Positions 4,561-64,000 are shown, counted from the stretch's first letter. The stretch is DNA of 64,000 nt from Moniliella sp. 'wahieum' (GCA_003971905.1 RSEE01000013.1:434001-498000); one strand, 5' to 3'. Numbers and translations: made by a program. The notes: generated by a model not told the origin, from the letters alone.

Positions 4561-4985
4561 TCATCGATGAATTTGCTGTACATTACTTTGAAGATACAAA
4601 CAGTAGCAGTAGGTGTAAAGGTGACGCCCTCGAGACGTAGCATGAAGTAGGAAGATCTTGTGTGGCTCCTCCCGGCCTGATGCATGATGCATGATGGATG
4701 GTGGGGCCGCTGAGGCTCCAGCCTGTAACCTTCTGGAGCTCTTGTGGGTGCGGCAACTCAAGCAGATACCAAATGGGGACAACGGCAGGGTTACGTAAGC
4801 GGCGCCGTTGCCTTGGCTTTTCGGCGCCCTGGCCCGCCTGGCCAGCCCGATTGGGTCGAAAGCGGTGGCGCGCTAGCCGCGAGCAGCTCAGAATTCGATC
4901 AACGTATCGACACGTGCCTGCCAGGTGCGCAAGAGAGAGGCTTCCGCCTGCGTCCGCTCTGTCCTTTTCCAGCGTCCCCCCCTCC

Positions 4986-6561
4986 ATGTCGGCCAAGCCT
5001 AAAGGCGTGGGCGTTAAGCCGCGTCCTGGCCCCCAGCGCTCGACCAAGGCGCTCGGAAAACTCAAGATCTTGCCTGATGGAGCGGACGTTTCCGACAGCT
5101 CGCAGCCGCAGCCCCAACTCCGCGACACTAACCTGTCGCCCGACGATGATAGCAGCGACGACCAGGACGACAATGACGACTGTCAGAGCAGCAGGCCTTC
5201 CTCGATCGCATCCCAGAGGGTTCCATGCGTCGCGATGCCCGCCGCCTGACTCGCAAGGCCCGAGCGGAGCTCCCTCGTGTTACTGCTTATTCCACGGCAA
5301 CCTCCTATCGCATGAACGATCTTGTTTCCTGGCTCACGCGCGCAAGACGACCCACCAGACCAACCCGATGACATTCGACGAGTGTGTCTATTCCACCTAC
5401 ACGTACAAATATGCAAGATCTCATTGTGGGTGCCAATAAGCCTCATCCCCACGCTGCACCCATGCCCAGTTTGGATGACCGTCAGCCACCCCGGCGTCCT
5501 CGTCCACCTCCCCGGCCTCCACGCACTGGCGATCTTCTGGGAATCCCAGAACTAAGCGAGGAAGCTGAGGCGGAGGCGGAGGCGGAAGCGGAAATGGAAG
5601 CTGACTTGGCGAACGAAATGAGCAAGTTCCGCAGTGGTCATGCGACCGATTCGGCTACCGAGAGTGGAACAGAACACGAGGCAAATGGCCTCGGCAATGG
5701 GCAGGCACGCGCTCTTGCGATGGCTAAGGCATCACAACAGGCCATCAAACAGGTGACGAGGAAGCGGGAGACCGTTTGGAACATGCGCGGCGCCGTCGCC
5801 GCGAGCGTTTCGCGGTCGACAACCATGTCCCCGAGGTCTTTTTTATGGAGTATGGAGCGGTGGTCATTTGGGGTATGACAGAGCAAGAGGAACATCGCTT
5901 GCTTCGGGAAATCCGGCGGTTTGAGGTGGAGCGTGCGGCACCAGATGACATTGAGTCGGAGGACCTGAACTGGTACTTGGCCGACTACTCCCGCATCTAC
6001 AATGATGTGATTACGCTGCGCAAGGGCAGCGGTATATGACCAACTTTCCTCTCGCATGCTCTGGCCCAGTCGACCAAGATCTCGTTTTTTGAGGGGGTGA
6101 TCGATAACACAATCGACTCAACCAAGGACATTCCTCAATCAATCGCGGAGAGTGGTACGATTGGACTGCCACCGAAGGACATTATGAAGCAGATCGGTCA
6201 TCTGTTCATCCTGCGTATGAATCTTCACCTTGTCGGCTCCATTGTCGACTCTCCCGAATCTTTTGGTCACAGCCGACTTGGAACCACTCTACTCGGCGGC
6301 TCGCTCCTACCTTGAATTCCCCAGCGAATCGACCTGCTCAACACGCGCGTGGAGGTGCTGCAAGACATGCTTCAATGCTGAAAGACCAGGTCAGCACAGT
6401 TCATTCGGAATGGCTGGAAATCATTGTCATTGTGCTCATTACCGGGGAGATTGTGCTTGGTTGCGCAACTAGTACGTTGATTCCTTTGTAATTGTTGCCG
6501 GTTCCGGATCCTGACCTCTTCCATGGCTCTTACAGTGTTCGTTGACCTATACTTTGAGTAA
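4986..6561 (+). CDS. RMD1: Rmd1/Sif2-like DUF155 protein; frameshifted; probable intron ~6472-6535
   Basis: PQRSTKALGKLKILP; VPEVFFMEYGAVVIWGMTEQEE; SRIYNDVITLR; SHALAQSTKISFFEGVIDNTI; IGHLFILRMNLHLVGSIVDSPE; C-terminal LEIIVIVLI transmembrane segment. Confidence 0.9.
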
Positions 6562-9012
6562 AGCAAGAGGCGAGTTATTACTTTCTGCTGTATACCTATC
6601 ACTTATCCCCCCCTACTCGCTTCTTGCCACATTTGACTTGTAAGCCGTGCATTTCGTGCCGGGCCCCGAAAGCGAGTTATGATGCTGGGCTCTGGCGCGA
6701 CTCTGTACCGGAAACAGGCGGCTGCGATGGGGGGCATCTCATTTCCAAACATCGACCTCTGGATGTGTTCGATCACTGTTGCCTTCGGGCGAAGAGTATA
6801 GGGAACTCTAGCGTGCGGCCATCGGCTGCTCGAGAGAGGATTCAGTTCGTATAGCCACTGGAGCCACTTGAGAAAATAGACGTGCATCAAATACCGCGGC
6901 GGCAACCGGAGCATAATGCCTGCGCCAACCCGCTCGATCGAGAACGATGCCGGTACAGCTGCCCCCTCCCACAAGTACCGCACATGAGGATGTTTTTCCT
7001 CTTCTCCCTCCTTCTTTGTTTCTTTATGCCCTGGCTATTTTCACGGTACAAAACCGGTCCTGCTGCAGATCAAGGTCCCAGAAATGCGCCTCCAGACGGA
7101 AGTGTAGGCGGCTGCAGGTGCGTGTCATGTAATTGCATATGGACACAGTCCTAATGTGCTGGTGCATCCTTTCCCATTTCCCAGCTTCTAATCATGAGGG
7201 GGTGCATGCAAGCTTGCATCCGAACCACCACCCCAGCGTCACAACATGGCGCATCCCTCTGCCTCCCCCGCCCCTCGCCGGCATCCGAGCCAGGTGGCGA
7301 ACACTGCCTCCCCGTCCCCTGGAGCCAACTCTTTCAGGGTGAGGAAGTCGCCATTGGCTTCGCCCTCAGCGGCCGCCTCCCATGTTGGTTCTGGCCAGCC
7401 TCATGATCCTGCATCTGCGTTGCACCAACAACCCACCCTCCCAGGGCGAAGCGAGCTCCTGCAATCGCTTTGCACTTGCTTTTTAACTTTCGACGACCCC
7501 AACGGCAGGAGGATGCCCATGCGATTCAAGCTGAAATGTATGCCTGCGGTGGAACAGCAACTCTCCCAGCAGTATCTTCATACGCGCCCTTCATTATGCT
7601 CCCGCTCTCTTGGGGCTCCAGAGCTATGCGTAAGACACTGACTCCCAATCATATGCAGGGAAAAGGAGCAGGCGACGGAATGGGACCACGTCGAAAAGGA
7701 AAGGGCTGAGGGTAGGTTTTTGGCATACGTTAATGCCCACGGCGCACTGTGGGACCCTTGGCTAACATCGCGTCGTCATATATGTGGCCGTTACCAGTTC
7801 CTCCGCAGGAGAAAGGCAGGAGATTGTCCTCATATGGAGGCTTACCCGAGGATGCAGTTGTCTCGGTGCCCGCAGAGATGGTTGTGGGGCTGGATACGTC
7901 ACGCTATTCGGTTTTGTCCAGTCAGCTCATCCGATGCCTCACGTAGAGATACCCCTTTGTTCAATGTGTCTCCCCGGCTTGATTTGGCGGGGCGTACCAC
8001 ACCACCCAAGCCATCCTCTGAGCGCAACTCGGCATCTACTGTTCTCACCTCACTTGCAGCTCTACCAAGCCCCGCCCCCCTCTCTCTCATGACTGTTTGG
8101 AGGCCCGGCCTACCTGTTGCGTCACTTCAAGGTAACCACCAGATCAACAAAGTGCATTCGAAGGGAAAGGGTGTCGATGCTGCTGTGTCTCATCCCCACC
8201 ATTGTCTTCTCAGTCCTCGACTGTCGAAACAGTTCAGGGAGGGGACACGCCACCGTCCATCATCAATGACCGAAGTGAAGAACTTAACTAGTACCTCAAC
8301 ACTCTCGCACTTCTTTCCCGTTGTGTGGTGCCCCCCCTTGTTGCAAGGATACCCGCCGCAAGAGTTTTCTACGAAAAAGAGAACACGCCACTCATCCTTG
8401 CCGGCACGGTTGTACGCAGAGGGAGAGGGGGTAATAGCCCCTCAGAACCAGTCCGATGCCTTTCCACTCAATCGCCTTCGGTCCCAAGCAATGTTAACAT
8501 CTGCCGAGGGAGGGATGGAGTACTTCTGTTGGGCTCATACCATCCGACCATCGTGCAGACCGGCGTGGTGCTGATTCCCAACTTTCTCGTAAGGCCAGCA
8601 CAGCGGAATCTCACCCATCCTCGTTTCCGAAGTGGTGGTTATCCCCTCTTCCTCTTCACCTCCACCTATGCCAGACCCTTGCCAGGCCGGTGTGTTGAAG
8701 CCGATGCATTTATATCAAGACCGAAACCGACGATGAACTGTTGCTCCCAGACTACCTCCCACCCTCTTTTGCACGCTTCTCTCTTGCTACCACTACAAGG
8801 ATCAATACCAGACCTGCAATTTCCCACTAATGTCCATTTATTGATGAGGGCATGGCCATTGGGACCAGCCAAGCCTCCATATACGTGTCGTCACCTGTCA
8901 TTGAATCGTGGTAAACAGCGTCCATTTTGCGCTCGGGAGGTGGTGAATGTATATATATAGCTGTGTGCTCTTGTCGTTGGGTCCGCACCGCTTTTGCCAT
9001 GTAGATGTGGCA

Positions 9013-9560: not shown

Positions 9561-9992
9561 GGTGTGGGCTTTGGCAAATATATCGAAGTGGTGGCAGGTG
9601 AGATAGGCGTCGGTAGGAAGGTTGTAGGACGGATGGGGTGGTGGTGGTGGGGGTGGTACGAGAGGGGGGGGGGGGGGGGGTCTTTTTATGCCCCCCACCC
9701 ACGCCGGAGCTCGAGGGATCGGGGGCTCTGCTGGTGGTTTCGCAGGGTCTGCATGGCCAGGGGTTATTCATCGCATATACTATTCTGAAGCGGTATATAT
9801 GTGCACCCCGGAGTTCCGGCGTGAACTGGTGCGTGCCCTTGGTGGTCGTCGCATGCGAGCAACAAAAGTCGGGGCCATGTCCTTCTGGCCACTGCACCCC
9901 ACGCTACCTCCTCATCCTACCTTGTTCCATCCCTGTCCTCGCCAAGCCGGGCAAGCGTGCTTTCATCAAAAGGTTCGGGCCAAGGGGAAGAG

Positions 9993-21358: not shown

Positions 21359-22893
21359 GGACGTCTCTCTGCAAGGAGCGCGGATGTAATGGGCTGCAAG
21401 GCCCGCTATTCTCTGGGTTCCACAATCTCCGACCCTCGATCACCGACCAGCATCGGCGTGCTGCTGCTGCTGCCTGCCTGCCCCGGCCATCCTGCCTATC
21501 CACGCGTGTTCCTGCCCGCCCGCCCTCCTTCCTCCGCGGCTTCCGGCCGTGCATCGGCATCAGTCATCGGTCATCATGCATCAGCGGTGCGTCATCTATG
21601 CATGCAACCAACGTCACGCGTCACCCATCCTTTGCGCACACCGCGCTTGGCGCCTGGTGTGATGCATGATGCATGCACCCCGAGATTTCCTTTCAGCGCA
21701 TCTGCTTCGGCCTTCGACGATAACGATAACCTCCGCATTCCGCCTCCCGCCGTTCCGCTCCTGGTGCCACCGTCGACTATGGCCGGCCGTCCTGGTTCGG
21801 GTGCCCAGCACGACGCTGGTGCCTCTGCTGGCCATCACTTCGACCCCTTCGTCTAGCGCCCAGGCAACGTGCTCTTTGTCAGGGGCACCTGCACACGTGG
21901 GCCGCACCATCGTCGCGTCATGCATCATTGACCCCATCATTTGCAAGCTGCTGGGATCGGAGACCAAAGGCCACAGCTTGTCCGGATGCAATGATTTATC
22001 TGTTCTTTGCATCCTGGCTCGCTGAGCCGACCACGCGTGCGCCGCAGATCCTTCTGGAATGGGTTGAATGGAAATACGGCTACGTGCGATCTTTACGCGT
22101 ACGGCGTGGTAGCGGCCGTCGCGATGGCCGCATGGGATGGTCCTATAGCATTTGGCGGCCAAATCAAATGTAGTCCACCTCTCTGTTTTTAGCCCTCTTA
22201 AAAGGTGTGACCAAAAGACGTCCTCTATGTCGGGGAAATGACCAGCTAAAGAGATGCATCAGGATCACGATACGGGCAGTGGTGGGACCATCGTCTTGCT
22301 CTGTGCGGTAGACCGACATGGCTTGTTCCAACGCGCGCATCTTGTGGGCGAGGGCCGAGGGTGGGGAGGAGGTGTCTTGTGGGGGGCTGATGTGGAGAGG
22401 CGTGAGGCTGAGGGCGTGAGGGCGTGAGGGGGAGCGTGAGCACGGGGTGATTGAATATTGAACGTTGAACATTCGGATGGCCCCACTGGGCTCGGACAAA
22501 CGCAGGCTGCCCAGGCGCCCAGGCCCTGGCCTGTGCACTGGCGTGCCGCGTGCTGCCAAACGGGGGTGGCCTGGTGGGGGCGTGGCACACTGCCCCTGTG
22601 GCGGCGCCACGCGCGCTTGCGCTCTGCTGCCTCGCCGCCGGCAGGCCAGACAGCGGCAGCAACGCACCACGCAGCAGACACCAGGCCACACCAGCTGCCA
22701 GCCTGGCCCATCGCCTTGGCTGTGTCGCCCCCGCCGCTCACCGCCCGCTGCGTCGTCCTTGCCTCTGCTCCCCATCTGGCTGCCATGCCCCCCCCCGGCC
22801 CTGTTCCTGCGCCCAGCATGCCCCCTCCGCCCGCCCGTGCGTCCTGCCTCCTGCCCTCTGTCTAACCCACGCCCACGCCCCGCGCCCTGCTGA

Positions 22894-27430: not shown

Positions 27431-29096
27431 TTTCACGGCCTTTTGCGCTTTTTTTTTCTCGAACAGTGGTCATGCATCTCTTGTCCCAACCAATCCCCTT
27501 CACCTGCCCCCTTTTGTAACCCCGGTCTGCAACAACCTTCCTGTTCCTTTTCCTGATCCTTCCTTAGAGCCGGATTACTCCCCACATTGCCCCTTCTCCT
27601 TGAGGGGTGATGGTCTGGGCAGAGAGGCAGGTTATGCTTTCGCTTTAATTTCGCTTTCCTTTGGCTGCAGCACCCCTTTCCTCTTCGTTAAGGATTCGTC
27701 ATGGCGCTCCTGCGGCACGGCTGCATTTCCTCCTTCTTGTCTGCACACCCGACTGGATGCCATTCTCATGTTGTTACCACTCCCGCGACAGAGGAAGGGG
27801 GGTGGATGGGGATGGGGATGGGAAGTCGTACACCGACCCCTGGGATCGTCCTATCTCGGATGTGTGTTGGCAATGCGTCCGCCTCTACGAGAGGGTTCCG
27901 CGGGGGTGGGGGGAGGGGCGCACGGTCCGTGCCCTATGTAACGTTCAACGTTCAACGTTCGCTGCCACGAGGCATTGGCTGCTAGGTCGGGCGAGCTGAT
28001 CATCCCGATCATCAGCTACATCGGCGCATCAGCTGATCCATCCCCCCCCACTCAATTGAAGAGTAGCTGATAACTTCGACCCTATCGCACTCCTACAGTC
28101 TGGTAGTCTTGAACCATGTTCTTCTTGTACGCTTCACCTTTTCCCACTGCCCTTCCTCCCGCTGGTGCCCCCCCGCATATGGCATCCTTTCGACGACCGC
28201 AACATATAGTAGCTTGGAGCGGGTGCATGTGCCTGCATGCATGGATGCGGCCACCATCTCGAACTACTTTAGTGGGGAGGCTTGACATCACCAGTGACTA
28301 GTGACTAGTGGCGGTCACTAGGTCCCACGGGGCCCAGCTTGCTCCCGAACGATAGACGATAGGCTTGCTTGCGATAGTCGATAGATGGCATGACCTGGCG
28401 AGCACACTGGGTCTGTGCACCAGGCGAGGGGGAGATGGTGCAGCAGGACGTGTAGTAAGTATATACGTCAATTGCCTGCGAACGCTGTGAACGTTGAACG
28501 TTGAACAGCGGGGGGTTACGCCGGTTAAATGTGGTTAAGCGACGCACCCAGCGGGTCTCGGCCTTGGTTGGACCAGATTCGGGCTGGGGAAGGCTGGAGA
28601 TGGTGCAAGCTAGCCGGAGGGGCCTCCGCGGGGCTTGCAAGGTATGTAGATCGCAGCTTGGAGCTCTCAGAAAGCTTGAGGCGTACAGGCCTGGGGCCTT
28701 GAGGGTTGGCCGGTTAGAGGCCGCTGGGGAACCAGAGAGGGCCGACCCACGCTCTTGTGCTGCCAAGTGCTACTCGCCCCAGGAGCAAAAGGAGGCCTGC
28801 ACGGTCCATCTACGCACGGTCCGTCAAGCGTCAGCACGCCAGTACTTGCGAGACGCAGACTGAGTACCGAGTGCTGAGCGGACGCAGGCGGAGATGTGTG
28901 AAGCGTGATGACACTGGGGGGCACCGTCGAACCCAGATACAGGCTGCTTACGTAGCGAACCGGCCACCCACTCTCTGGCCCCTATCCCCGAAAAGCCCGC
29001 TGTTCTGCCTTATAAGATCCGCATCCGCATCAGCAACGGCAATTCACACGCTTGCGCTCCCTCCCGCCTCTGCCCTGCCCCCGCACCTCCACCAGC

Positions 29097-30145
29097 ATGC
29101 CTCACCTTCCTCCGCAACTCAAGTCGCTCGTGCTCTCACCCACCTTTGCAGGTGGCCGCCTGGCCAAGCCGCTGCAGCCGCCCAAGGCGGCTGTGCTCAC
29201 CAAGCTCTTCCAGGACGTCGAAAGCTCCGCAAGCAAGCAAGGTCTCGGCTGGGGCGAATGGCTGTCGATCACGACCGCCAGCCTGTTTACTCTCGACTCG
29301 CCCGGATCGCTCCAGGCGCTGCACAAGTTCTCCGCACCTCCAGCCTGGAAATCGAGGAGCGCACAGCGCGCGCCTCCTTGACCCGCGAGGTGGGCCTCAA
29401 GTGCATTGGGTTTGTTGGCATCCCCAAGGTCATCAACAACCTTGCCGCTCTCCGCAAGGCAGTCGAGACGGACGCCGAGCTGGTCTCGAAGCTCTCCCTT
29501 GAACCTCGCAGGTAGGTCTTTTTTCCGTTCCGTGTACCCCCCCCCCCCCCCCCGAGGCTGGGAATGCGCTGCTAACGTTTACCTTTCTCAGGCGCGTGAC
29601 AAAGGACAACATTGGCTTGGTCAACAAGTCGGCGTACGGGTTGTGGGACAACATTTACACCCCGCTTTCGGAGCGGCTGATTGATGTGCTCAAGAACAGT
29701 CATCCCGATCTGCCCGTGTTTATCATTGAGAACGAGTATGGTCCGCTGTTTGCCTCGCCCGGCTCGTTCCATGATCCCGCTCTGCCCGAACCGGCGTGGG
29801 ACGTGAACCGGCTGCGTACCTCGCTGGTTGCCATCTCGGCACTGCGGTCGCAAGGCGGTGTGGGCCCGCAGGTCACGTCGCATATTTGGGGGCTGCTCAA
29901 GGCCAAACCCTCCATCTCGTCCCAGGACGTGAACAAGGAAGGGTTGGAATGGCTCACGTCGGAAGAGGGGCAGAATGGGTGGTCAAGACGGTCGACCAGG
30001 TATGTGTCCATCGTGCATCCTATGTGTGGAACAAGGCAAGTCAGAACTGACTGTGGAACTGCGGATTTGACCAGATTGCCGAGGTGGTCGACGGTACCCA
30101 GAGGCCGAGCGGGAGCCCAAACCTGCGCCCAAGCCCAAGCTGTAA
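29097..30145 (+). CDS. AhpD/carboxymuconolactone-decarboxylase-like fungal protein (Pxp2-like); introns ~29512-29591 and ~30000-30074
   Basis: REVGLKCIGFVGIPKVINNL; LWDNIYTPLSERL; SHPDLPVFIIENEYGPLF; RLRTSLVAISALRSQGGVGPQVTSHIWGLLKA. The last exon ends KPKL*. Confidence 0.75.
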
Positions 30146-31039
30146 TAGGAGCATTATCTCGTGGGCGAACGTACTGCCTGTATCCAGTGGTCTGCACTAC
30201 AATAGCGACTGTTCTTGTTGATTATCGAACACCCTCGGCGTAACCCGAATAGAGTGGGACTTGTAGTGGGCATTATAGAAGCACAAGCGAACGAAGACAA
30301 GCAATCTCTCAGTGGAGACGTTATACTGAACGCACTTGAAGGCCTGGGGTAAAGCAACTCGATCAAGACGAGTGCACCCTCTCCGCCAGGCTCTGCCACG
30401 TCCATAGACCTTTGCAGTTGAACGTTCGTTGAACTCAACGTTGAGAAAACCAGCAGATAGACCGGGGAGGATACGTGCGGTAGGTAAATCATCCTCTTGT
30501 GGTACCTGCAGTAAACCAGGTAGACCACGGTAAACCGCCATTCTGCTGGCACCGAATTTATCCGACAGCTGGCACAGCAATAGGTACGTCTTCACGCGTG
30601 ACGGTCATGCGTGACTCCATCTACTCCTTGCGCTTTTGGCTCGTGCGCAGGACCGCAGTGACCGGTGACCGGTGACCCAAAGTCTTTTAATCGATAAGGC
30701 CGTCACATGTCACACCGTGACGAGCACAATTTCTATGTAGCAACGCTGAAGGGCGCACGCCATTCCCTCGTCCTCCACCTACACCGCACGTTGCAACAGT
30801 GCATGAACAGCTTGACCACCTTGGTCAGCTTGACGGAATGGGTGAGAAGCACGGTTTTGGTTTGGTTTGTCCTTGAACTCAAGGAGAAAAAAAATACAAC
30901 GATAAAAAACAAGGCAAACGAGACGGTAGTAACTGCGACTAGTAGAGAGCACTGTTGGCAACAAAGGATGAAACCGATGACAAGCCACTGGTGGCCATAT
31001 GGTTGGCCTTGGACCCTCGCATACCTGTTTTGGCCATGC

Positions 31040-38983: not shown

Positions 38984-39565
38984 GAGGAGGGGCAGTGGGG
39001 CGGTGGAGGGAGGCGGGGCGGTGGGCGAGAGGAAATGCGAAGGAAATGCGAGAGAAGTGCAAGAGCGGGAGGAATGCGAACGGAAATGAGCGAAAAGGTG
39101 CGAGTGGGGACCCGTGTAAGACCACTTGTGTGCTGGGCCTGCGTGGCCTCAGCGCCTCAGCGCCCTCGGCCTCAGCGCAGTCCGTGGGACATCACTAGGC
39201 CCGTCTCACTGGTCACGCGTCGCGTCACTGCCCGCGCCAGCCCGCTCACATGCGCTCACACCGCGACGGAGGCGCGGGCGTTCGGGTTTCGCTTCCGCCT
39301 CGGCTGCAGGCCACTGCATGACGTAGCTCAGCCCAGCACCAGCCCATGCAACCCTACCACCTGCGCACGTAAGCAGGCGTTGACCTGCACGTCCGTGTGC
39401 GTGGGCATCCATCGTCCCGCTCAGCGGGCGCTCAGAGCTCAGATCTCAATCTCCGCTCCCAGCGCGCCCCAGCACCAGCTGCTTCTGCGCCGAGTGGCGC
39501 TGCTGCACCACCGACAGCACCACTCGACACGACACGAGCCACCCTCTGCCACCCCTCTGCCCGCG

Positions 39566-43299: not shown

Positions 43300-46200
43300 A
43301 TAAGAGAGACCCCCCAGACTGACTAGGTTGCCACCGCGGGGGGGAAATTTATCCCCCTGTGGAACACCACGTCACATCCCAGTTTGCGCATGCTCGTCCT
43401 CTATCCTTTACCGTCATGCCGGGGACGCGCAGCAGGCACACGGTTGCAATGACGCTGCGAAGATGCATCTGCATGATGCGTGAGGCGTGAGGGGCGTCAG
43501 GCCTGTGGCCAGCCCGAGGGTACTGCCTGCTACTGCATGGTGTGGCATGGTGTGGGAAGCTCTCAGCGGCATGTTTGGGACGAACGGATAAGGAGGAAAG
43601 ACTCAACTCAGTATACTCGCTACTTTCCGTATATACTCAGTACGCAACGTCTCAACGTCCCACGTCCAACGTTCAACGTTCAGCTCACTCGGCACTACAC
43701 AGCTCTAAGGATAGCATAGTACATTGTGGTGCCCACAACCCCGGCACTATACTAGCCCCAAAGTGAGGAACGCACCGGGACGAGGGGGCTCCAGTCACGA
43801 TATAGCCACAGTGTACTGAGAGCAAGCCCTCGGCTTGGGTAGACATATCACATGGCGTTTTATTGTTCCTTTCGGAAGAGGTGCCGCGCAGTGGGACCTT
43901 GTGCGGGGCTGCAATGCCGCGCTGCTGCCGCTTGGGCCAGGATGTGTCAAGCGCACCAGCTTAGCGCTAAGCTGGTGCGCCAGGAGGCAGACAGGTGGCA
44001 ACACGGAATCGAGAAGGAGCGAGTGGGAAGGCGGGCGAGCGTTCAGTCTCTGGACACACCGAGCGCCAAGAGCAACCCGGCCACTTGTCGAGCACCAGCT
44101 GGGTGTGCAACGCGTATGGCCGACGAGACGCTGCGCCCACGGGCGTCGCCGGGTGATAGCAACGGGGCCAGAGGAGGGGACAAGTGACTCCTCGAGTGGC
44201 TAGTGCTAGTGACCAGTGAATAGTGAAGCTTGGAGCTGGTGGCTAGTTGCCGGAACGAACAACTAGCATACCGTTTGCATTGCATTGCGTTGGGGTGCGG
44301 TGCTGCGCTGCCAGGTACCGCACAATATTGCATTTGGGTTGCCCGCAGCAGGCGGCAGGCGGCGCACCCATCATGCATCATGCACCAACGTTTCTCGGTT
44401 CAATTGTGCACAGTCCTTTTACAAGACTGCCTGGCCAGGCAAAGCCAGGCAGGAGGGGGCAGTGGCCCGTGGGCGAGACAGCAGAGCAAGTAATGCCATT
44501 CGATCGTCGGGCCCATCGCGGGGTGGGGGTGGCAGAGCGCACCAGAGGGGGCAGCAGGCGGCAGCCGTGGCCAGGAGGGCCATGTGCATACACGGGCCAT
44601 CCGTGGTACCTGGCTGGAGCATTTCCAGCGCCCAGCCCCGCTCAGCCGCTGATGTGCTCAGCCACTCATGTACATACACCATGCATTATCCATCAGTACT
44701 CAGTGCATCAGGTCGTCCCGCGTCACTGATCCCGCGATCATCGATCATCGGACTGCGGAACACACATGGCCGCCCTAGTGCTCCATCCGACGAACGATTG
44801 GGGCTCGGCGCTCGATGCGCTCGATGAGCTCGATGGGCGATGGGCGCTGGGCCATGGGCCATGGGCCATGGGCGATGATCGATGGACGATGGGCTATGGG
44901 CGATGGTCGATGAGATCACTGAGCAGTGGGTTAATGGATGTGGCTGCTGGGTGCTGGGGGCGTGTTGGCCATGAAGCCGGCCAGCAAAGGCAGTCGTTGC
45001 CGACACCATCCGTGAGCGATATCAACGTTACGCGTTACGTTAGAAAGGCAGGGTGTACATACGCCCATGGCCGAAGAATGCGCATGTGGCATGTGCATGG
45101 GAGCTGGCGCGAGGAGGCCTGAGGGCATCAATCATTGATATTCGCTTCCGATCACGGCTCACCGATCACTAATCATTAATCATTAATCATTAATCATACA
45201 TCACATCATGCATCATGCAATCATGTGTGCCACGCATCACGCATCATGTATCATGCATCACTAGTCACTGGGCGCACCATCCCCGAATCCATCATCGAAA
45301 TCTACATGTCGGGTGTCGAAAATTGAAATCCATGCCGAAGACACGGTTCCTGCCAACACCGATTCCACACTGGTGTACAAGCCATGTGTGGGATGTGCCA
45401 CTCGCCGACCCTTCGGATTGCCCGGCTCCGTCGTAGGCCGTATATCATTACGTGAGTCACACGTCACACGTCACACGTCATTAGTTACTAGTTACTAAAT
45501 ATTAATTACTAGTTGCTAGATCACTAGCCCCACGCACTCAAAGACTTTGTCACATGCGAATATGTACACTTGCTCCCGCACGCCGCACGGTGCACGACTC
45601 TCCTAAATTCAAAGCGCTAAAACCGCTGAGCCTCAGATCTCTGATCTCAGAGCCATGGCTGAGCGCACTGAGCGCTCGCTGAGGGCGCTAAGCCGAAGAT
45701 TCTGTGTGATCGATGATCTTTGAAATTTGAAGTTTAAAGTCGAAGCGACATGTCGAAAAGTAATGTTTAAATTTTAATCCCCGTCCATGTCACTATCCGC
45801 AGCCACCAGTCGCTACGTATCCTCTCCTTTTTCGCAGAAAGCACGCCGAGTCGGGCTTAAGACCATGGGGCTTTTGGATTGTGTTCGGAGTAGCAGCCTG
45901 AGGCCTCAGCCTGAGGCCTGATGCGTATGAGTGCGTGCGCGCTCAGCTTGAGTAGCGCTAAGCTTAGCCTGAGCGTGTGACAGTGACATGTCAGTGACCT
46001 GTGACATGCGGGGTCTGAGATTTGAGGGCCTAAGGACTAAGGAGATAGCAGGAAGCAAGTGGGGCGAGTGTTCGCTTTAAGGTACCGGTACCCTCGCCTT
46101 TTTCGACTTGGAATTACTCCTGTACACTCTTTGTTCTTCAGCCTGCGTCGTACCTTCATTCATACTGTCGGATGAGGTCGATGAGGCTAACATTTCTGGC

Positions 46201-49200
46201 TGGAATCGCCAGAGTCGCCGGCACCCCCCTCAATCAGATATCGTGCTTTACTAAGCGCTAATGCCGGCCATGGGCCTGGTTACTAGTTACTAGCCGGTTA
46301 CTTGGCCAGTCCGGAACGAAAGTGATTCTAGCTGCCGTGCGGCGTCGAGTACCACACTGAGAACCAAAGAGGACTCGTACTCAATATTCAAAGTTCAACT
46401 TGCAAAACAAGTACCCTGTTGCATCTTGTTGTGTGGCCAAAAAGAAAACCTGTGACTCTTGTGGCTTGGGGAAAGGGTTTGATTTGGAACTTCGTTCTTA
46501 CTATATCTACTTGTACAGATGCATGCTGCGCGCTACGCATGATCGGTGATCGGAACCTAATAACGATGATCGATGATCGATATCCTCAGGTACTTAGTAC
46601 TTACTTATTCGCGAGGGAGCGTGTGACATGTGACATGACATGTGACAATAGTTATTGTTACTTGTGACGCGTGACACAACGATTGACATGACAAGCCCGC
46701 ATCGCCCTGCCTCAGCATCCACGCCAAGTAAGAGTGCTCTCAGTTCTTAGTTGCTCAGCCCTGAGTATCTCAGTGCTAAAGCTGGCTGAGCCTCAGCGGC
46801 TCAACGGCAGCACGCACTCTTGGCCGGCTCCGCTCTCAACTCCGCCATCGGACATCATCGATCAGCGATCAGGTGCAGAACCAGGCCGATTGTATTCCTG
46901 ACAGAGTATCGAGTACTGAGTTACTGAGTTCTGATTAATGAACTGATTTCTGACCTCTTCTGGGATGTGGGATCTGGGCTCAGCGACAGCACGCGCTCGG
47001 CGCTCAGCCTGAGCGCTCACTGGCATCATGTCTCGCACCAGATGTTCAGCCACTGTAGAAGATAACTGCGTCAACGTGTCAACTTCAGTGCCGTATTACT
47101 TCTTCTTCTAGCGGGCTGGCTTTCCGGAGAGCTAAAGGCGGTGAGGCTGGTGACGCGGGTGATGCGTGACGGTACCAGGGAGGCCGCCTGAGGCCTCAGC
47201 CTGAGGCTTCAACCTTCAACTTGAAGCATGAGAGATGCAGGTGTAATATGCAACAGAATGGAATCAATGCGCCGAGATCAACACAATGCACCGGTGTGCG
47301 CGCCACCCGTGAAGTGTGATACGTGTGGCATATGTCATGCATCATGCATCATGTGAAATGGCGCAGCCATCAGTGCGTCAGTGCATGAGCGCTCAGCCCA
47401 ACATTCTTTACCTTTTGCGTATAGCACTCCGCCGTGGCGCGTGACGCGTGACGCGTGAACCGCACGTTTCCGGCTCAAACACCGGGGGCCGCAGGGTTCT
47501 TCGACCTCGTCAAGCGTGACGTCGCGGGTCATGCATTATATCGATTTCGATCATCGATCACCGATCACCAGTCATCATATGCTACCGGAGACTATCATTA
47601 TAGCACTTGGCACTTCGATGCATAAGGCCTAAGGGTACTTGGTAGGGGTTGACTCGTCGTTAACTACTAACTAGCTGTCAAAGTCTTGTGAAGCTGTAAA
47701 GCTTAAAATGCTAACCAATAACTAGAACAAGTACGCAGTAACTAGTAACTGCTGCTGGGAAAAAGTAACTCGCAAAACTATTGTAACTCGTACTCAACAG
47801 TTCTTCTGGCCCCGTCGCTGTTTCGCCGAAAGAGGGAATGTGGAGAGCTAGCACATGCTGCCCTCAGATATTGAACGTCAACGTGTCAACGTTCAACGTT
47901 GCCGCGTGACGCGCGACCGTACGGCGTATATTTTTACTCACGTTTTACCGCGTTGCTGTGGGTTAGCTGGTGGGTTACCGGTACCGGTTGGCGGGTCTGC
48001 TATCTTAGTCATATGTTACCGGTTCCAGCGTTATACGTGTTACAGGCTACCGCGGAGGGAGCATGTGTCCAGCGCTCACTGACACTTGTCTTTCACGGAG
48101 TGCTCTCCTACCTATCCGACTTCAAGCTCTTTTCACTATACGCTTCAAGCTTCAAGCTGGCTTTTCAAGCTTCAGTGAGGCTCAAGAGCGCGCCCACTGC
48201 TTCCCGCTTGAAGCTGAACCACGAAGCCTGAAGAACCGCCTGACCCTTGAACCTTGTTGGAACTCACAGCGCTCAGGGCTCATTATTCATTGAAGATATT
48301 GAAGCTTGAAGCTGAGAGCCCCAGCTGGAAGAAGTTCTTGTAGCTGGGGATACGGATGGACTTGAAGCTTAATTCATCATCATGTTGCATGTGAAGTCGG
48401 TAGGCGACCAGATATATGAGCGAGAATCCATATTCAACGTTACACTTCAATTCAGTACTTTATTCCCTCCTCAGGCGTAGGAGTTCCGTTGTTTTTGCTT
48501 CTGTTTTCCTTGTTCGGCATCCAAGCTCTGCCTAGCCCCTGGCGGCGACTCTTGGCTGCTGTTGATGCATGATGTACATCTGTACAGGCGTTGCTAGCTG
48601 GATTATATATAGTTGACCACACCACCACCAGATTGCATCTCCTTCGAGCTCGAGGGCCATCAAGACTTCAGGTCTCATCACATTCAACCTGTTGCCCTGG
48701 GACTGCTGTTAGTGGCACTTCCCTATAGTTATAGAGATTTGGTCGAATAGACTTTTGGCCTGCGCCGCACTCCCACATGGCGCCTCCACTTTGTTCCAAT
48801 TGTGATCAAAAGTGCCGCACGTGTGTATAGTAGGCACCGCTGGCGCATTCCTCTCTGTTCTTCCTTATCACCGCAACCTATTTTGCTCAACTCGTTACGC
48901 GTTACCGGTTACCCCATTCTCGCTCATCTGCTTCTAATTGCTCAGACCCCGACGTCTGCCTGCCGTAGTACGTCGCTACACAAAAACGTTCCACGACGTT
49001 AATCCCAAATGATCGATACGCGATCGATCTCGATGAGATCTCGATCATCGAGCGATCCGGATCGGCGTACATCCTTGAAGAACTTCAAGCTTAGCTCCAC
49101 GCCTGTGGCTTTGAAGCTCTGAGATCTGAAGCCTGAGTTACTGAGTACTGACTCAGTCTGAGTAGTCTGGGTACTGTGAATTAGTTGCTAGTTACAGCTC

Positions 49201-49540
49201 AGACTGAATATTGGGTACTGATGGTATTGAGCGCGTCACGCGCAACTCCATCACCTTTGGTCACCGGTCAGGGGTTCTTGACATCCACTTTCAATATTCA
49301 ACGGCCGCAGCGCGCGCGTGTGGGTTGGTCCAGGTTGGTCCGCTTTTTGCCAGACACGATGAATGATTAATGGGGCATGGTGCATGGTGCATGTGTATGG
49401 TGCACTCAGCCTGAGGCTGAGGTGGAGGGTGTGTGATTCTGAGGCGCGGGGCAGCAGGCTCTGAGACGACAATGTGCATGTCACATGTCACTGTCATATG
49501 TCACGGGCCCTGGGGCAGGGGGGTTTAAGCGCTAAGCCTT
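43300..49540. repeat. Gene-poor region dense in short palindromic period-7 repeats (A-NNNN-T hexamer + 1 nt)
   Basis: (ATTAAT-C)x3 at 45175-45195, (ATCGAT-G)x2 at 46569-46581, (ACGCGT-G)x2 at 47444-47457, ACGCGT-T-ACCGGT-T at 48897-48910. No credible ORF. Confidence 0.8.
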
Positions 49541-51292
49541 TTAGTGTAAATGGGATACATTTACAATCTCTTGATGAAGACCGTCACGGAGTCGACTCCT
49601 AAGGGTATGGTCGCTCTTGGGAGGCTTGTTGGTGCATCCGAAAACGTTGCCAGGGACAAGGATATAATAGGCCTCTCGACGTAATAGCAGGGGCGACTCT
49701 CCTTTTGAGTGGCGAGAGAGGCTGCGCAGGAACCCCAGGGCAATATAGTAAAAAACGTGTCTAAGAAAGGTATTCATATCCTCCGGGACGGGAAACGGGG
49801 TTAGGGAAGACAACGTTACCCGAACAAGGACTGCAGAGCCGGAACCGGGATGGGAGCTGAGACTGAAGTAGGCTGGGACTGAATGTGGAGGACGAGAGAG
49901 AAATGATGGGGAGATGGTTGTTCTATTCCGGGAAGAAGATTCTTAACAGAGGAACGATACGGAGAGAAAGGGGGGGGTCGGACGGAAGACATGATTACGA
50001 TGAAATGGTATGACATGCTAGTGTATTTACAATCACGCCAACACTGAAAGCTTCACGGATTGGATACGGTCTATAAAGCCGAACACTGAGCGGCTGATAA
50101 AAGCTGAAGCTGTGGAGATGGGAAGATAAGAGGTGAAGAGGCGGCGGAGAGCAGAGGAGGCAACTATAAGAGAACAGAGAGAGTTATCAGTATACCGTAT
50201 ATGCTTTAGAGAAGACGGGAGCTAAAAGACGTCCACGGATCATGGATAGAAACCACGAACACATTGCTTTCAAGGCATTGCTGGGGAGACTAAAGGGAAA
50301 AAGCACAGCACTGGAGAGGGAGAACGGGGGGCCCGGTAGACGGGACTGAGGAGCAGTCACCACAAGGCAGTCTGTCTCGGGGAGGGAACCATGAAGCGAA
50401 AGCAGACTCGCAGGACTGAGTTCCCGATTAGGACGAAGCGTGGGTAAAAACAAAACCAAGGGACGACTGTCGTCGCCACGGATTCGCAGGTCGATGGGCG
50501 CTCGCGCCACCGGACACGGTGTGGTCATACGCACAGTCGGTGGGAATGTGTGTGTGATGTGAGGCTCAGGCGTTATGTGCACCGTGAAGTGCACATGATG
50601 GTCCTCGTGGGTGATGCAATCGCGATACTAGTAGTATAGTGGTGCTGGTGGCGCTCTAAGCCAACCACCCAACACCACCCTTCATTCAGAGAGGGACATC
50701 AAGCAGTCACAGCCGCCACCAGACCTGGCTTCGGATCAGAGAAGGCAGAAGGAAGAAAACATTGGGGCTGCTGGGTTAAGGAAGGACTGCAGGGACCTTG
50801 GCCTATAACGAACACATGAAGCCAGGCTGTTGTGACCAAGAAGAGAGACAAGTCATCGCGGGTTCGATTAACGATTCCCATTCGAGGGCCTTTCTTTTTT
50901 CCGGAGTACGCCTGATCATTCAATCTGTGTTGCCACTTCTCCCATGCCAGGCTCGTGAGGAGATGATATAGTTTCCCAAAAGAGAGAGAGATCCTCTGCA
51001 GCATTGGCCCTATTGCATGCCACTTGCCGCCCTCGTATCTATATTGTGCGCATTTAATTACGCCCCAGGTTTGCCTCTCCCTCATTTCTGCTCGCTTTCC
51101 TCAATTCGATGTTCCCTTTATGTCCGTGGTTGTGATCAGCTCCATATTTTTTGAGACAGTTGCAGCCATTGATTGCGGCCACTTGGACACGGCGCAACAC
51201 AGTTCTGTGTTCAACATGTTCAACATCCAAAAGCCATAAACAAGTGTTGTGCGCTGGCTCAGGGGAGAGCGGACAAGCGACAAAGAGTCAAA

Positions 51293-54065: not shown

Positions 54066-54167
54066 ACGCAGACGCCGCTTGCTGCGGACGCGCCGGGGGC
54101 TGCGCCAATTAACACTGCCCCTCGCTGCCGCCCAATCGCATCCTATCCCCTCCTTTCACTTCCGGAC

Positions 54168-56229
<2,062 letters not shown>

Positions 56230-58925: not shown

Positions 58926-60992
58926 CCGCCATAGTCTCAGGTCCCAATGCACACTTATGCTCAAGACCCTCGCCGTGGTTCGAAGTATGCTCACTGCACT
59001 GTACGACCAAGTTCCTTCCATGCTGTTCCACCCGCTTACAAGACAAGTAGGAGTCGAGCACCGAAGCCTGTGCAGTAAGAAATTATCCTTTACCCCAGGG
59101 GAATGCTCGGTCCCTATAGCGCCACAGATTTCGCCGTGGGGAGGGCCTTAGCTACAGAGACGTGTTCACCTGCCTTTTTCTCTTGATTCGGCTGTTCAGG
59201 ACGCAAATCTGTGTTCAGTGCATCCGCACGCATAGAGAGACGGACAGAGAGGCGCGGATGTAGTAGTAGCTGCGTTAGTGCGAAGAGTGGGGGCATCATC
59301 CCATCGTTCCCCTGGTACCGGCAGTGCATGGGAGTGGGGAGTAGGATGAATCAGCCTTTGGTGGTGGGAGTCGAAGCTGTAGCTGTAGCTGATCATTGCA
59401 GCAGCAGCGTTGTGATGTTGACAACAACAGACAATCGGTTGTTTTTGAAAGCACCTGCTGGCGTTCGACGATGCCGCAAAGTACTATGATAATGCGGTTG
59501 GGCTGATGAAGTGGATGTCCTTATTAGCGAAGTCCCGGCCCCAGGGGTATGGATGGTGCTGGTTGGCTGGCAGTGCACCAATAGAGCGGGGTAGTGGGGG
59601 TCGGGCAACGATTGGGGCCGAGAAGGGAGCTAGGGTAACCGGTAATGATACCTGACTGGGCACACAGAGAGGTAATGACGGGAATGGCGGACAGGTGGGC
59701 AAATGCGAAAAGCCTGGAGGCTCTGCTTGACATTTGAAGCCCCAAGTTGAGCTGGTTGGCAGTACCAGGCGGCCCCGTTCCGCCTCTGTTCCGCCTCCGA
59801 GGTGCCTTCCCTTGATTAGCCTGATTGCATCCACGCCATCTCTTCCCCTGCCTTGTTCGTCTCCCACAAATACACTCGCCTGGGTGAGTGGGAAAGGGGC
59901 ACTGTCCGGCTCTGCCCCCTTGCCCTAGCCTGCTTTTCAAATTTCTAACGCTTAGCCTGAGAGCGCTGAGGCTCAGCGCAGCAGCTGGACACTACTCAGA
60001 CTGAGCACTAAGAGTTACTCCGAAGCGTGAAGCTTGAAGCTTGAAGGTTCGGTTTGACGTTAGTAACTGAGTAGTGAGTAATGAGTACTACTGAGTACCG
60101 AGTAAACGTGAAGCTTTAAGCTCTTCAAGCGTCCCGCCCGCTTCAGCTTTGCAAGGAGCATTGAAGTTCACATCCGGTAACCCGGCCCACATACTGATCA
60201 CCTACCGAGTCACCGGGTCAAATCGACAGCCAAACGGCCGTTAAAAACAAAACAAGTCCATTCGTCGATGATCGATGACGATGAGATGATGTCGATGACG
60301 CACATGATGTCCAGGGAGTGGTCCGCGAATGAATTTCTGCTGCTGCAAGGATGCGAACTACCCAAAAGAACATGCCCCACAGAGACAAGTTGCTACGCCT
60401 GTGGTCCTCATTCCGCGGCATACTACACGCATACTCTTCGGTGTAGGAATGCTCCTCAGGAAAGCTCAGGCCTCAGGATGAGAGCCACAGGCACCCTCAT
60501 TTATTCGTAAGATCACAGGCAAACAGCATGAAACCAAGTCCACCTCTCTCTCTACTGTCCCAGGTTGCTGAGAGGTGTTATAGGGAACAGGCTTCAGAGC
60601 GTTAAGCCCCACGTCTGAATCACAGTACACGGTAAATTAGATGGATGGGGACACAATTTTGTTGTACAGGTGAAGATGGAGCATGGGATGACCGGATGGG
60701 ACACAAGAGAGAGGAAAAAGTGATCCAGTGGCAAAGATGGAAGAATGGAGCAGGGAAGGCGCGGCGAGAGTCAATAGAGATGGGCGAGAAATGCAAAGGT
60801 GACAGCAAGGAGAACCTGGACCACTGGATATGCCAAGAGTTGATGGTGACGACGGGGTAGATGTGGCTAATGGGTGCCAACAAGCGAGGCCGTATAGCGG
60901 TGGGAAGAAGAGAGGGGGGAAAGAGAGAGAGAGAGCCAATCAAGGCAGTAGACGCCAGTGCCAATACAAGAAAGAGCACGAAGAACAGACTG

Positions 60993-62070
60993 TCACCTGC
61001 CCGCCATAGGCAGATCCAGCATCTCATCTGGGCAGAAGGGGCGGTACGTTCACCGCCTTCGACCAAATCGGACCAACTGAGTTTTTCGCCTGCAAGGATC
61101 AGGCGGGCACCAGCATGATACTGGCCCAGGAGCACAGCATAGAGGGAACGAAGGTGCTGGTTGACGCGCCACAGGCGCTGCTGCACAATCCGCGCCTCTC
61201 ATCTTCTGATCCTCGTCCACGGCAAACAAGGCGTCCTCGACGACCAAATGAGCGGTCTTGCCTTGGTCAGCAAGGTGCTGGGCACGAGTTTCAGAGTTTG
61301 CTCTTCGAGGAGGAGGGAAAGGCGGGGAGGAACGGCCATGGCCTTGACGCCCCGATCGCCAGGAAGAACGCCGCTCAGTGGTTGCAATCTCGGTGCAGTG
61401 AAAGACGATACGATGGCTGCGGGAATTAGTTGGTCAGACTCAAGCGGGAGAAAGGGAAGGATGAAGTGAACGTACCCATTGGGGCCCTTGGCGTGCTTAG
61501 CAACATTGTGGGTGCAGCGCGCACAAGGAGACACGACATTGTAGCCAACCACTGACCCGCACCCATTGCATCCCAAGGTCTGGGTCAGGCAGTTGCAAGT
61601 CCGTTCCTTGGCCGGAGGCTCGTATCCGCACTCGTCGCCAAGCAGCGTATCGGGGTGGTAGATGGGACTGCAGTTGGCGGGCATTGCGTCGGTACTGAAG
61701 AGCGTAACATGAGGCTTGAGCAGAAGAACCGCCTTCATGCCCCGGTCGGTGAAGAAGGTAGAGCAATGCGCGCAGCGGACGATATAAACTGTCTGCCGCA
61801 TGCCAGCCTTCTCATTACTGGAGATGGGGCGCTGGTGGATACTGGGGTTGGAGGGGACCGAACGCTGGGCAGGCGGTGAGGGCAAGGGGGGGCGAAACGT
61901 TTCCGGGCGGGAGGGGCATGTCGTACAGCGTGGAGAGCGAGGAACTGACCGAGGCAGAGACGAGGGGCGGAGGGGAGGCGCGCGCCTGTTGGAGCCAAGG
62001 GGTGGCGAGATTGTCGTCGTAGCAGGGCGGAAAGTGAGCGGTGGATGCTGCATCGCAAGCTGGATGCCAT
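60993..62070 (-). CDS. FAM72-family Cys-rich (Yippee-like) protein; intron near 61400-61474
   Basis: VYIVRCAHCSTFFTDRGMKAVLLLKPHVTLFSTDAMP; RTCNCLTQTLGCNGCGSVVGYNVVSPCARC. Probable end MAGR* at 60993. Confidence 0.85.
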
Positions 62071-62685
62071 GGAAGGAGAGTTGAGCTAGTGATGGAAGTT
62101 GGAGAAGAAGGAGAATGCATGGCAGACGACGGGGGGGTTATATGAGGAAAAAGGTAGTTACTATCAGGGAGGAAGGGGCTGTGCAAACCAAGCCTATGCA
62201 GCCACGAGCGTCACGCATGACGACACACACACGATCAGCGATCCGCAATCAGCGATCAGCTGCCGACTATCCTCCACTGGCTCGGCCAGTGCCTTTCTGC
62301 TGCCGGTCGCAGCGGCATTTCACACGTTGGATGTCACATGTCACATGCCGCACGTCACAGGCATCACACGTCAGATCTCAGGATCTCAGAATCGAATCTG
62401 AGACACAATGCAGTGACTGGGAGCTTGGCTCTGCTCAGCCTGAGCGCTGAGGCTCAGCCCTCCCTCGTCTGCTCCCGGGGGAATCGCCACGAGAGACAGC
62501 ACTCAAGCCGAGGGCCGAGCAGTCGGTCCAGTGCCTCGGATCATCGATCACTCGATCACTACTCGTAACGCGTAACTTGAGGGCGTTGCAGATTCCAGGA
62601 GGACCACAAAAGCACCCGAGAAGCCAATAATGTGACGTGCTGAAAAGTATAGTCACCTCACTTCACCTATGGACACGAGGAATGC

Positions 62686-62730
62686 ATGGTGTATGGTGTA
62701 TGGTGGGTGTATGGTGTATGGTGTATGGTG
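62686..62730 (+). repeat. (ATGGTGT)n heptamer tandem repeat, about 6 units with one interruption
   Basis: atggtgt atggtgt atggtgg gtgt atggtgt atggtgt atggtg. Confidence 0.85.
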
Positions 62731-64000
62731 CACTTTGTTCCATAACAGCAGTGCTGCACTAAGCCTTATGCCGCTTTTTCCGAACGTGTACAACAGTGCC
62801 GGCGGTTTGCCCTAGGAGGCTAGTGGTTGCCCATTGCTGCCTGGGGCTACTTCAGGCTACTCCCTGGATTCATGACATCATGCATAGGACGTCCGCGTTA
62901 CTGAACCTTCATCGACTTCATCGATCATCATTAACACATGCATCATGCATCATTAATCATTATCATTAATCATTCTTGAAGCTAAAATTAGTCGCCAGTC
63001 TCAGTTCACCCTATTCTTAGTTTCTCATTTCCTCCGCATGGTGGCTGTGGCATGTCCCCATGTCATGCATCACACATCATACATCACTCATGACTGTCAC
63101 CTGTTGCGCATCTGCATCACCGGCCACCGCACATTGGTCACCGGCCCTTGGTCCCCGTTTTGCTTGTTCCACATAGTGTGTGCATAATGTTTGTCACACA
63201 ACGGCATCTTCACACTTCATCACATGGGCCTCTGAAGTATTACTGAAAGTAGGGAGAAATAACACAGAAGCGCTGCAATTCTGTGACTGGTAACCAGTAA
63301 CGGTAAGCGGTAAGCGGTAGCCACCCTCTGTATCCACCATCTTTCTCGGCCTCCCGTGCCACATGCCTCCTGCGTTATCCTTTCGCGTAGACTCGTGTCG
63401 GGCTATGGAAAAGATGATCCGACGATCAACGTCCAACCTTCTCATGATTTTCCCTCTCTCTTTTCGGCGATTTCAAGAAGCTGCCATACCATATTGGATG
63501 GAATAAGCCTTCGGTTTTTACCATCAACAGTAGCGCCAACACAGAGCATTAAAAAAGCTAAGGTATTATACAACGACTCTTCTGTAAATTGGGTACTTAT
63601 CTTCCATCTCTTTCCTCTAACTATGCATTATACAGTGGTATAGCAAAGTACAGCGCATCAGGGCCGGCGAGGGCATGTATAATACATGTGTTGTGCGCAT
63701 ATACTCTTCTCAGGTCTCCCACAACGTCTCTCGTCATCCGTTTGTCACGCAGTTCTTCTCGGCCGTTGTCACTGTGTTCTATATTATGCATGCAGGGTAT
63801 ATGGAGTAACTAGTAATGACGCGTTGGATTACCCGCTCTGCGCACTTTGATCTACATATCTACATGAATACTTATCCCCTCCCTGCGGCCCATACGGGCT
63901 TCCGGGCCTAGTGTCAAAGGCTTCAAGCTCCAAGCTTAATGAGCGCTGAGCTTCGAAGTCCCAAGCGTCTGTTGACATGGACTTGAAAGAGGCACACAAG

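Follow-up and report, generated by a model that had tools for sequence, protein, structure and literature searches.

What process has filled the DNA between the genes of a fungus with short palindromes set seven bases apart? The question is raised by a 64,000-nucleotide stretch of DNA from Moniliella sp. 'wahieum' (GCA_003971905.1, RSEE01000013.1:434001-498000), the whole of which is called the window here. Many of its intergenic regions carry tandem heptamers, each made of a six-base palindrome that begins with A and ends with T plus one spacer base, and successive heptamers are joined through the triplet T-N-A (TNA). A first-pass annotation had offered two explanations: TNA-centred copying of flanking bases in inverted orientation, for instance by opening of hairpins after a nuclease or transposase cut, or selection for a chromatin protein that reads symmetry. 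The results described below make it highly probable that the units are repair scars of an insertion process that copies its flanks, and not selected motifs or products of pure slippage. On balance, and with modest confidence, the sequence favours the view that a hairpin-forming cut-and-paste transposon, whose 7-bp target is centred on TNA, left them as footprints of its excision. Unless metagenome contigs are named, all counts refer to this single window of one genome.

To measure the period-7 signal, exact tandem duplications of at least two units were counted in the window. There were 57 of period 6, 73 of period 7, 11 of period 8 and 5 of period 9. Of the 73 period-7 repeats, 39 contained a 6-bp palindrome, and 36 consisted of A-NNNN-T plus one spacer base, a form that would make up about 2.7% if every heptamer were equally likely. 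Autocorrelation at a lag of 7 was raised 9.7-fold for TAA, 7.6-fold for TTA, 5.9-fold for TCA and 4.0-fold for TGA. Plain period-5 duplications were not enriched. The chains that had been described from the sequence are therefore real, both in these 36 repeats and in TNA palindromes taken alone, which lay clearly above shuffled sequence; all nine arrays cited in the first-pass annotation were present where it had placed them. Its remark that the chains have a dyad axis every 3.5 bp is true of them, and is an automatic result of palindrome plus spacer that adds no further fact.

Palindrome counts were set against 30 dinucleotide shuffles of the window; k-mer enrichment under a Markov model of the highest order left the signal too diluted for use. 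Hexamer palindromes of the form A..T occurred 308 times, compared with 174 ± 14 in the shuffles, whereas the C..G, G..C and T..A forms were found at 0.84-1.02 times expectation. Seven-base palindromes centred on TNA numbered 314 (188 ± 14 in the shuffles), and those centred on ANT, CNG and GNC were at 0.92-1.02 times expectation. Because only the TNA centres exceeded the shuffles, this comparison, which had been put forward as a way to overturn the pattern, leaves it standing. Among nine-base palindromes, TNA centres were found 106 times (49 ± 6), and GNC centres were weakly raised (114 versus 89 ± 10).

The spacing of TNA triplets gave the same picture. Pairs separated by four bases (TNA-4-TNA) numbered 284, and pairs at other spacings 96-175. 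The tetramer between the triplets was palindromic in 114 of the 284 pairs (40%, compared with about 6%), and 15 of the 16 possible palindromic tetramers were in use. Where both triplets had the same middle base, the tetramer was palindromic in 97 of 186 pairs (52%); the corresponding figure in a control of 547 kb of metagenome contigs, mostly unrelated, was 48 of 689 (7%). The apparent scarcity of the units in coding sequence was borne out: Pfam-supported open reading frames (ORFs), 15.2 kb in all, held 2 of 97 units, or 0.13 per kb compared with 1.95 per kb elsewhere, and the units are thus about 15-fold rarer there.

The composition of the paired triplets indicates how the unit is built. The middle base was identical in both in 97 of the 114 palindromic pairs (C in 49, G in 31, A in 10 and T in 7). 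Arrangements that were palindromic throughout, in which the middle bases are C and G and a perfect 10-bp palindrome results, were seen only 9-10 times. The TNA is therefore duplicated directly, not as a mirror image. Exact period-7 matches around units had lengths that peaked at 12, with a second peak at 19 (5+7k), and not at 10. The two extra matched bases lay on one side, with overhangs of (0,2) in 15 cases and (2,0) in 9, compared with 4 for (1,1) and 5 for (0,0). As the run lengths peak at 12 and 19 and the extra bases are one-sided, the minimal unit is a 12-mer, TNAxy + rc(xy) + TNAxy, where rc denotes the reverse complement: a direct repeat with identical N around two inverted bases. This 12-mer was found 103 times on both strands, and 0.15 times in block shuffles. 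Of 134 repeated 5-mers, 118 had A as their third base, and a T came before it in 103 of these 118. No base preference was found in the inferred targets beyond this T and A, at positions 3 and 5 of 7. By our estimate, about one third of the real units seem degraded.

All 186 same-N pairs were classed against their own flanks and against permuted flanks. In the simplest class, isolated units, which are palindromic units without an in-phase palindromic neighbour (n=68), the tetramer usually consisted of a flank dinucleotide followed or preceded by its own reverse complement. Such a match was found in 50 of the 68, and in about 9 with permuted flanks. Only the left flank was matched in 21 units, only the right flank in 16 and both flanks in 13, and 18 matched neither; the permuted-flank expectations were 3.7, 3.6, 1.5 and 59 respectively. 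Palindromes derived from one flank alone thus made up 37 of the 68 isolated units, compared with about 7 by chance. The mixed chains examined, at 22450 and 48893 and at the chain ends at 45258 and 62949, obeyed the rule in all four cases, and perfect 10-bp palindromes did so in 5 of 10. Two of the chains show both flanks in use (coordinates here and below are those of the window, without strand):

22450-22473: mixed chain with three TGA at 7-base steps; ATAT comes from the left flank AT, ACGT from the right flank AC.
48893-48913: mixed chain CGTTACGCGTTACCGGTTACC with three TTA; CGCG comes from the left flank CG, CCGG from the right flank CC.

The palindromic nucleotides are thus copied from the adjoining flank, and the proposal of inverted copying centred on TNA holds in essence.

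Joints that depart from period 7 were then compared with the same rule. When the repeat around the two-base inverted copy was lengthened by 0, 1, 2, 3 or 4 bases, 103, 11, 6, 2 and 0 cases were found, so that same-N direct repeats on either side of the joint were 5 bases long in 103 cases, 6 in 11 and 7 in 6 (both strands), compared with at most 0.15 in shuffles. Period-8 variants numbered 11, and in all 11 the extra base was the base adjoining the other TNA. Among 13 candidate period-9 variants, 6 had a complete 7-base direct repeat around two inverted bases. Two compound joints, at 33019 and 39246, contained both flank-derived palindromes with a 1-base overlap, where 0.06 were expected; for these, retention of both overhangs is more likely than the alternative of an 8-base repeat. 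Plain 7-bp duplications with a non-palindromic tetramer were found 11 times, compared with 0.6 expected. Two copies of the target site thus flank the joint, both in the 5-, 6- and 7-base repeats and in the plain duplications, and the joints are heterogeneous, as the small numbers of period-8, period-9 and double-overhang forms indicate. Examples are as follows:

32777-32792: period-9 variant, CATCATG twice around CA, which is the reverse complement of the last two bases of the repeat.
33017-33033: compound joint with seven bases between two TCA, beginning with GCGC from the right flank and ending with CCGG from the left flank, with a 1-base overlap.
39244-39260: second compound joint, with CATG and GCGC and a 1-base overlap.

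The first of these has the form expected for two intact 7-bp target copies plus two palindromic (P) nucleotides.

From these arrangements we infer a transposon, a hairpin, the position at which it is opened and the pathway by which the ends are joined. Insertion would take place at a staggered 7-bp target centred on TNA (nnTNAnn, written pqTNAxy), and seven bases would be duplicated. On excision, both flanking ends would be sealed as hairpins, and a host nuclease would open each about two bases 3′ of the tip. The resulting overhang would be self-complementary and four bases long, with the final two bases of the flank joined to their own reverse complement (P nucleotides). Artemis nicks hairpins two bases 3′ of the tip and leaves a 4-base overhang of this kind. 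End joining would mostly keep one overhang and drop the other, yielding the left-flank or right-flank class at period 7, with a net gain of seven bases: a TNA, a 4-base palindrome set by one flank, and a TNA with the same N. Retention of both overhangs with an overlap would give compound joints, opening of one end at the tip would give periods 8 and 9, and opening of both ends at the tip would give a plain duplication. Since each scar would recreate the target, repeated visits would build chains, and a target that was already palindromic would give homogeneous ones. Slippage or microhomology-mediated tandem duplication may add further copies, which fits the 5+7k lengths. Scars would persist only where an insertion of seven bases is tolerated, which means in intergenic DNA and, in many cases, in divergent promoters. 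A dimeric transposase would fit a target that is symmetric about N, and direct target duplication together with a zero-loop inverted copy of the flank points to classical target-site duplication plus P nucleotides.

The separate steps have precedents in the literature, cited here and below from excerpts of the papers named. Flank hairpins are formed by hAT, Transib, RAG1 and a MULE (PMC4561436, PMC5873905, PMC5499845). Hairpins at broken ends are opened by host enzymes, Pso2 in yeast, and then enter end joining (PMC5873905, PMC5499845, PMC4561436). Palindromic insertions from flanking DNA are a known mark of Ac/Ds hairpin excision, fungi included (PMC5873905, PMC4561436).

Several observations weigh against excision footprints. 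No element and no transposase ORF of at least 110 amino acids was found within the 64-kb window, and no published transposon family with an nnTNAnn target was found, the target consensus of hAT7 and Kyakuja being absent from the excerpted text. The 18 isolated units that match neither flank are left over by the copying rule. Direct repeats of 8 bases occur in two or three cases, and the length of 7 is therefore not sharply bounded. Footprint density would be very high: outside Pfam-supported ORFs there are about 2 units per kb, and at 44-50 kb, where 47 of the 97 palindromic TNA-4-TNA units lie, about 8. The scars are far denser and far more uniform than the footprints catalogued in the excerpts of PMC4423477, in which clean duplications were left by 8 of 94 excisions in rice. 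The palindromes are even, unlike those of Ac/Ds, which have the complement of the adjoining base at their centre. An 80-bp period-7 array without TNA, at 44831-44912, is the one clear exception to the TNA rule. Finally, the whole case rests on one window of 64 kb.

The lack of an element in the window favours the first alternative, in which TNA sites in accessible DNA, such as promoters, are cut by a hairpin-forming nuclease that is encoded by the host or has been domesticated, and repair leaves the same scars with no mobile element involved. The scars are uniform, dense and clustered between genes, often in divergent promoters, and the flank-copying rule requires only hairpin-capped ends. The 5-7-base repeats on both ends, however, would require a staggered cut that was filled in before the hairpins formed; insertion followed by excision would give such repeats, and a single cut would not obviously do so. 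No candidate gene for a nuclease of this kind was found in the window, and to our knowledge no such hairpin-forming enzyme is known in fungi except the mating-type switching nucleases. We regard this alternative as rather unlikely. There is a similarly small chance that a domesticated hairpin-forming transposase regularly breaks TNA in open promoter DNA, for example at meiosis or at another stage of the life cycle; if so, much intergenic sequence would have been written by the scars of programmed breakage and repair, some of them since co-opted as promoter elements.

Slippage or microhomology-mediated tandem duplication acting alone, with self-complementary units favoured by hairpins on the lagging strand, is an improbable source of the pattern. 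Run lengths of 5+7k are those expected from 5-base microhomology arms, homogeneous arrays of 3-4 units exist, and tandem duplications in microbes are reported to stem mainly from microhomology-mediated events (bioRxiv 10.64898/2026.02.28.708716). The birth of the 12-mer is left unexplained, however. An ordinary microsatellite copies whole units without dependence on the flanks, whereas flank dependence was seen in the 37 one-sided isolated units (about 7 by chance) and in the mixed chains. Hairpin stability should favour C..G and G..C palindromes equally or more, yet only A..T palindromes were enriched. Other periods showed no enrichment, adjacent units differ in their palindrome yet share TNA, and the period-8 and period-9 variants carry the same two-base inverted copy. 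We agree with the first-pass annotation that neither slippage nor a single transcription-factor motif can explain the origin of the units; slippage can explain their later growth.

A selected promoter or chromatin grammar, in which short palindromes are read by a dimeric or shape-reading protein, was the second explanation offered at the outset. The units lie in intergenic and often promoter DNA, TNA stays constant along chains while the tetramers vary, and some hexamers, such as ACGCGT, resemble known fungal sites. Against this, 15 of the 16 tetramers are used, the only bases for which a preference was found were T and A, and about a third of the real units seem, by the estimate given above, to have decayed. 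Since the tetramer is predicted by the two neighbouring bases, the rule is one of copying and not of recognition. The symmetric sequence is dictated by whatever bases adjoin it, and a symmetry-reading protein, which found no support, is a distinctly improbable cause.

Footprints of the PIF/Harbinger type, made of a 3-bp TNA duplication plus two bases from each inverted terminal repeat, would have the right length (3+4=7), and mPing accepts TNA with a free middle base and a 3-base stagger (PMC4561436). However, the flank, and no fixed end of an element, supplies the tetramer, which takes 15 different forms. Around the joint the direct repeat measures 5-7 bases, not the 3 (TWA/TNA) of PIF/Harbinger, and scars are abundant, whereas PIF, Pong and mPing usually excise precisely, through overhangs derived from the target-site duplication (PMC4561436). 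No inverted-repeat element flanked by TNA was found in the window. These transposases, which had been suggested as the agent, are a poor fit and very improbable. An assembly, polishing or base-calling artefact can be dismissed almost entirely, as the units keep out of coding sequence, follow their flanks by a detailed rule and have counterparts of the same type in independent metagenome contigs (L032, L045 and L053), one of them clearly fungal.

Other models were also tried and dropped. A 3-bp duplication with remnants of element ends fails because the tetramer is flank-derived and the direct repeat is 5-7 bases long. A 5-bp duplication like that of Transib would place TNA at one edge or the other, and no enrichment was seen for plain duplications of period 5. 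Fold-back or template switching at a replication fork predicts TNA, ANT, CNG and GNC centres alike. Odd palindromes of the Ac type were found 5, 9 and 1 times, compared with 2.5, 4.2 and 1.2 with permuted flanks.

To look for the putative transposon, the window was searched by domain and by structure. Pfam detected no transposase domain in its 225 ORFs of at least 110 amino acids. A search of the window for inverted terminal repeats beside a 3-bp duplication returned 51 matches that looked like chance, none of them with TNA, and no 7-bp nnTNAnn duplication was found together with termini inverted at 10 or more of 12 bases. Among 77 inverted pairs in the window, the 25 longest were inspected and none was element-like. 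A full-text literature search yielded no description of period-7 TNA-palindrome chains in fungal intergenic DNA.

Metagenome contigs were scanned with three TCATGCA units as the query. The 118 loci recovered were mostly unrelated or bacterial heptamer arrays, and other units of the TNA-palindrome type occurred, at low density, only in contigs L032 (fungal), L045, L053, L018 and L051. No transposase was found among the 76 ORFs scanned, of 106 of at least 120 amino acids, in those contigs. Contig L032 (8.1 kb) carries a fungalysin M36 gene split by introns, Ras-family genes and PAP2, together with a TGATGCA array and two one-sided flank-derived units, which hints that the TNA-palindrome grammar occurs in other fungi as well. 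The occurrence of units in a few metagenome contigs argues against an artefact and for a wider distribution, on thin evidence. A further locus, L043 (20 kb of a 277-kb metagenome contig), is bacterial, with a nuo operon and a Por secretion tail. It has 22 exact period-7 repeats in 20 kb, with GAATATT-type units at several loci, and shares one unit only.

The window is eukaryotic DNA of 57% G+C with ordinary multi-exon housekeeping genes: RPS3, a Neo1-type P4-ATPase, Pex2/12, FtsJ, a protein kinase, PP2C, EF1-gamma, an SH3 protein, BRAP2, a DEAD-box helicase and a YPEH2ZP-domain protein. Among named sequences, those that best match the EF1-gamma exon come from Ustilaginomycotina (Malassezia, Ustilago and Tilletia, 50-57% identity), followed by other Basidiomycota, and one further protein matches at 76% identity. 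On the strength of these matches, the host is a basidiomycete of a poorly sampled lineage, nearer Ustilaginomycotina. The remaining arrays and the regions that hold them are:

4678-4696: array of 2.7 units of TGA + TGCA, between the minus-strand RPS3 gene and a plus-strand ORF.
27940-27960: three exact units of AACGTTC.
30658-30677: array of 2.9 units of TGA + CCGG.
32838-32924: ten TCA at exact 7-base steps, with varying tetramers of which 5 of 9 are palindromic, in a divergent intergenic region.
43400-49600: gene-poor stretch of about 6 kb without a Pfam-supported ORF, with chains at 45152-45260, 47438-47458 and 48893-48913; the genes around it are otherwise closely spaced.
60028-60046: array of 2.7 units of TGA + AGCT.
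62232-63400: region rich in arrays, on the upstream side of the YPEH2ZP-domain gene (minus strand); 12 units fall in the 62-64 kb bin.

Other repeats were also seen in the window. At 44808-44912, a period-9 run of GCGCTCGAT (3 copies) runs into the 80-bp period-7 array mentioned above (44831-44912). This array consists of CGATGGG/CCATGGG in about 12 copies with 84% matches and without TNA, and its exact core at 44848-44873 is the palindrome CCATGG chained with a G spacer. A period-13 unit, GCCTGAGGCCTCA, is present twice at 45894-45921 and twice at 47186-47215, 1.3 kb apart. In this unit a perfect 10-bp palindrome alternates with an odd one of 9 bp, with TGA and TCA in inverted orientation, and these repeats may be longer palindromic tracts of the same origin as the 7-base units. 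At 47438-47458 there are three ACGCGT hexamers at 7-base steps. ACGCGT is the cell-cycle box of yeasts, and an array of scars could therefore serve as a ready-made promoter element. A degenerate period-7 array of GGTAAGC/GGTAACC at 63289-63323 resembles 5′ splice-site words and is not of the TNA-palindrome type. Homopolymer runs of G17 and C17 lie at 9664-9680 and 29537-29553.

If the units are excision footprints, scars would make up a visible share of the intergenic DNA of the window, the element itself not being found there. They would document, in nature and unusually cleanly, how hairpins are opened and ends are joined in a fungus, including P-nucleotide length, choice of overhang and use of microhomology. 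They would also be a sign of a family of transposons, or of a nuclease since domesticated, whose 7-bp target is centred on TNA and of which we found no description. In addition, they would show in concrete terms how footprints can give rise to microsatellites and supply promoters with short palindromes. The pattern TNAxy + rc(xy) + TNAxy could then serve as a simple annotation signature of past cut-and-paste activity in genomes that now seem free of transposons.

Comparison with known repeats and recombination systems places the units as follows. Bacterial and archaeal intergenic heptamers, such as those of Xanthomonas and the cyanobacterial STRR sequences, resemble them as period-7 tandem arrays between genes, L043 being an example. 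They consist of long runs of one unit per family, often in inverted pairs. They lack the TNA and flank-palindrome rule, and the pooled metagenome control was 7% palindromic. Microhomology-mediated duplication and slippage can extend a 12-mer with 5-base arms to arrays of 19 and 26 bases, but produce no inverted flank copies and have no specificity for TNA or period 7.

Excision of Ac/Ds in plants, budding yeast and Candida albicans is alike in that both target copies are retained, P nucleotides are copied from the flank by way of a hairpin, and the joints are heterogeneous with a few dominant forms (PMC5873905, PMC4561436). Ac/Ds palindromes, however, are centred on the complement of the base beside the element (PMC5873905), whereas those of the window are even. 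The window scars also form chains and fill intergenic DNA, which Ac/Ds scars do not. The Ac-type hAT target has the consensus nTnnnnAn, and Ac/Ds duplicates 8 bp, in contrast to the 7 bp centred on TNA seen here; period 8 was not enriched in the window (n=11). As odd palindromes of the Ac type were not enriched either, the chemistry looks more like nicking of the RAG/Transib type at the exact border. V(D)J coding joints, made by the Transib-related RAG and by Artemis, share with the window scars an even palindrome of about two bases per side and the off-centre opening of flank hairpins that is proposed for the window; Artemis is named as the hairpin opener in the excerpts of PMC5499845. They differ in that RAG and Transib duplications are 5 bp long, and V(D)J joints are somatic and have no target-site duplication.

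The closest parallels in duplication length are found in Basidiomycota, where 7-bp duplications are made by hAT7 in Pucciniales (rusts) and by Kyakuja in Agaricomycotina (PMC12730594). No such element or transposase was found in the window, and the lineage of the window is nearer Ustilaginomycotina, where neither family is reported in the excerpts of PMC12730594. Kyakuja has CA..TG termini and no inverted repeats, and hAT7 groups with hAT elements of the Ac/Tam3 type, a superfamily that excises through flank hairpins (PMC12730594). Both families share with the window scars the phylum and the length of the duplication: in the window, period 7 is dominant, and the EF1-gamma matches are those of a basidiomycete. 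A 7-bp target duplication is therefore not exotic in this phylum.

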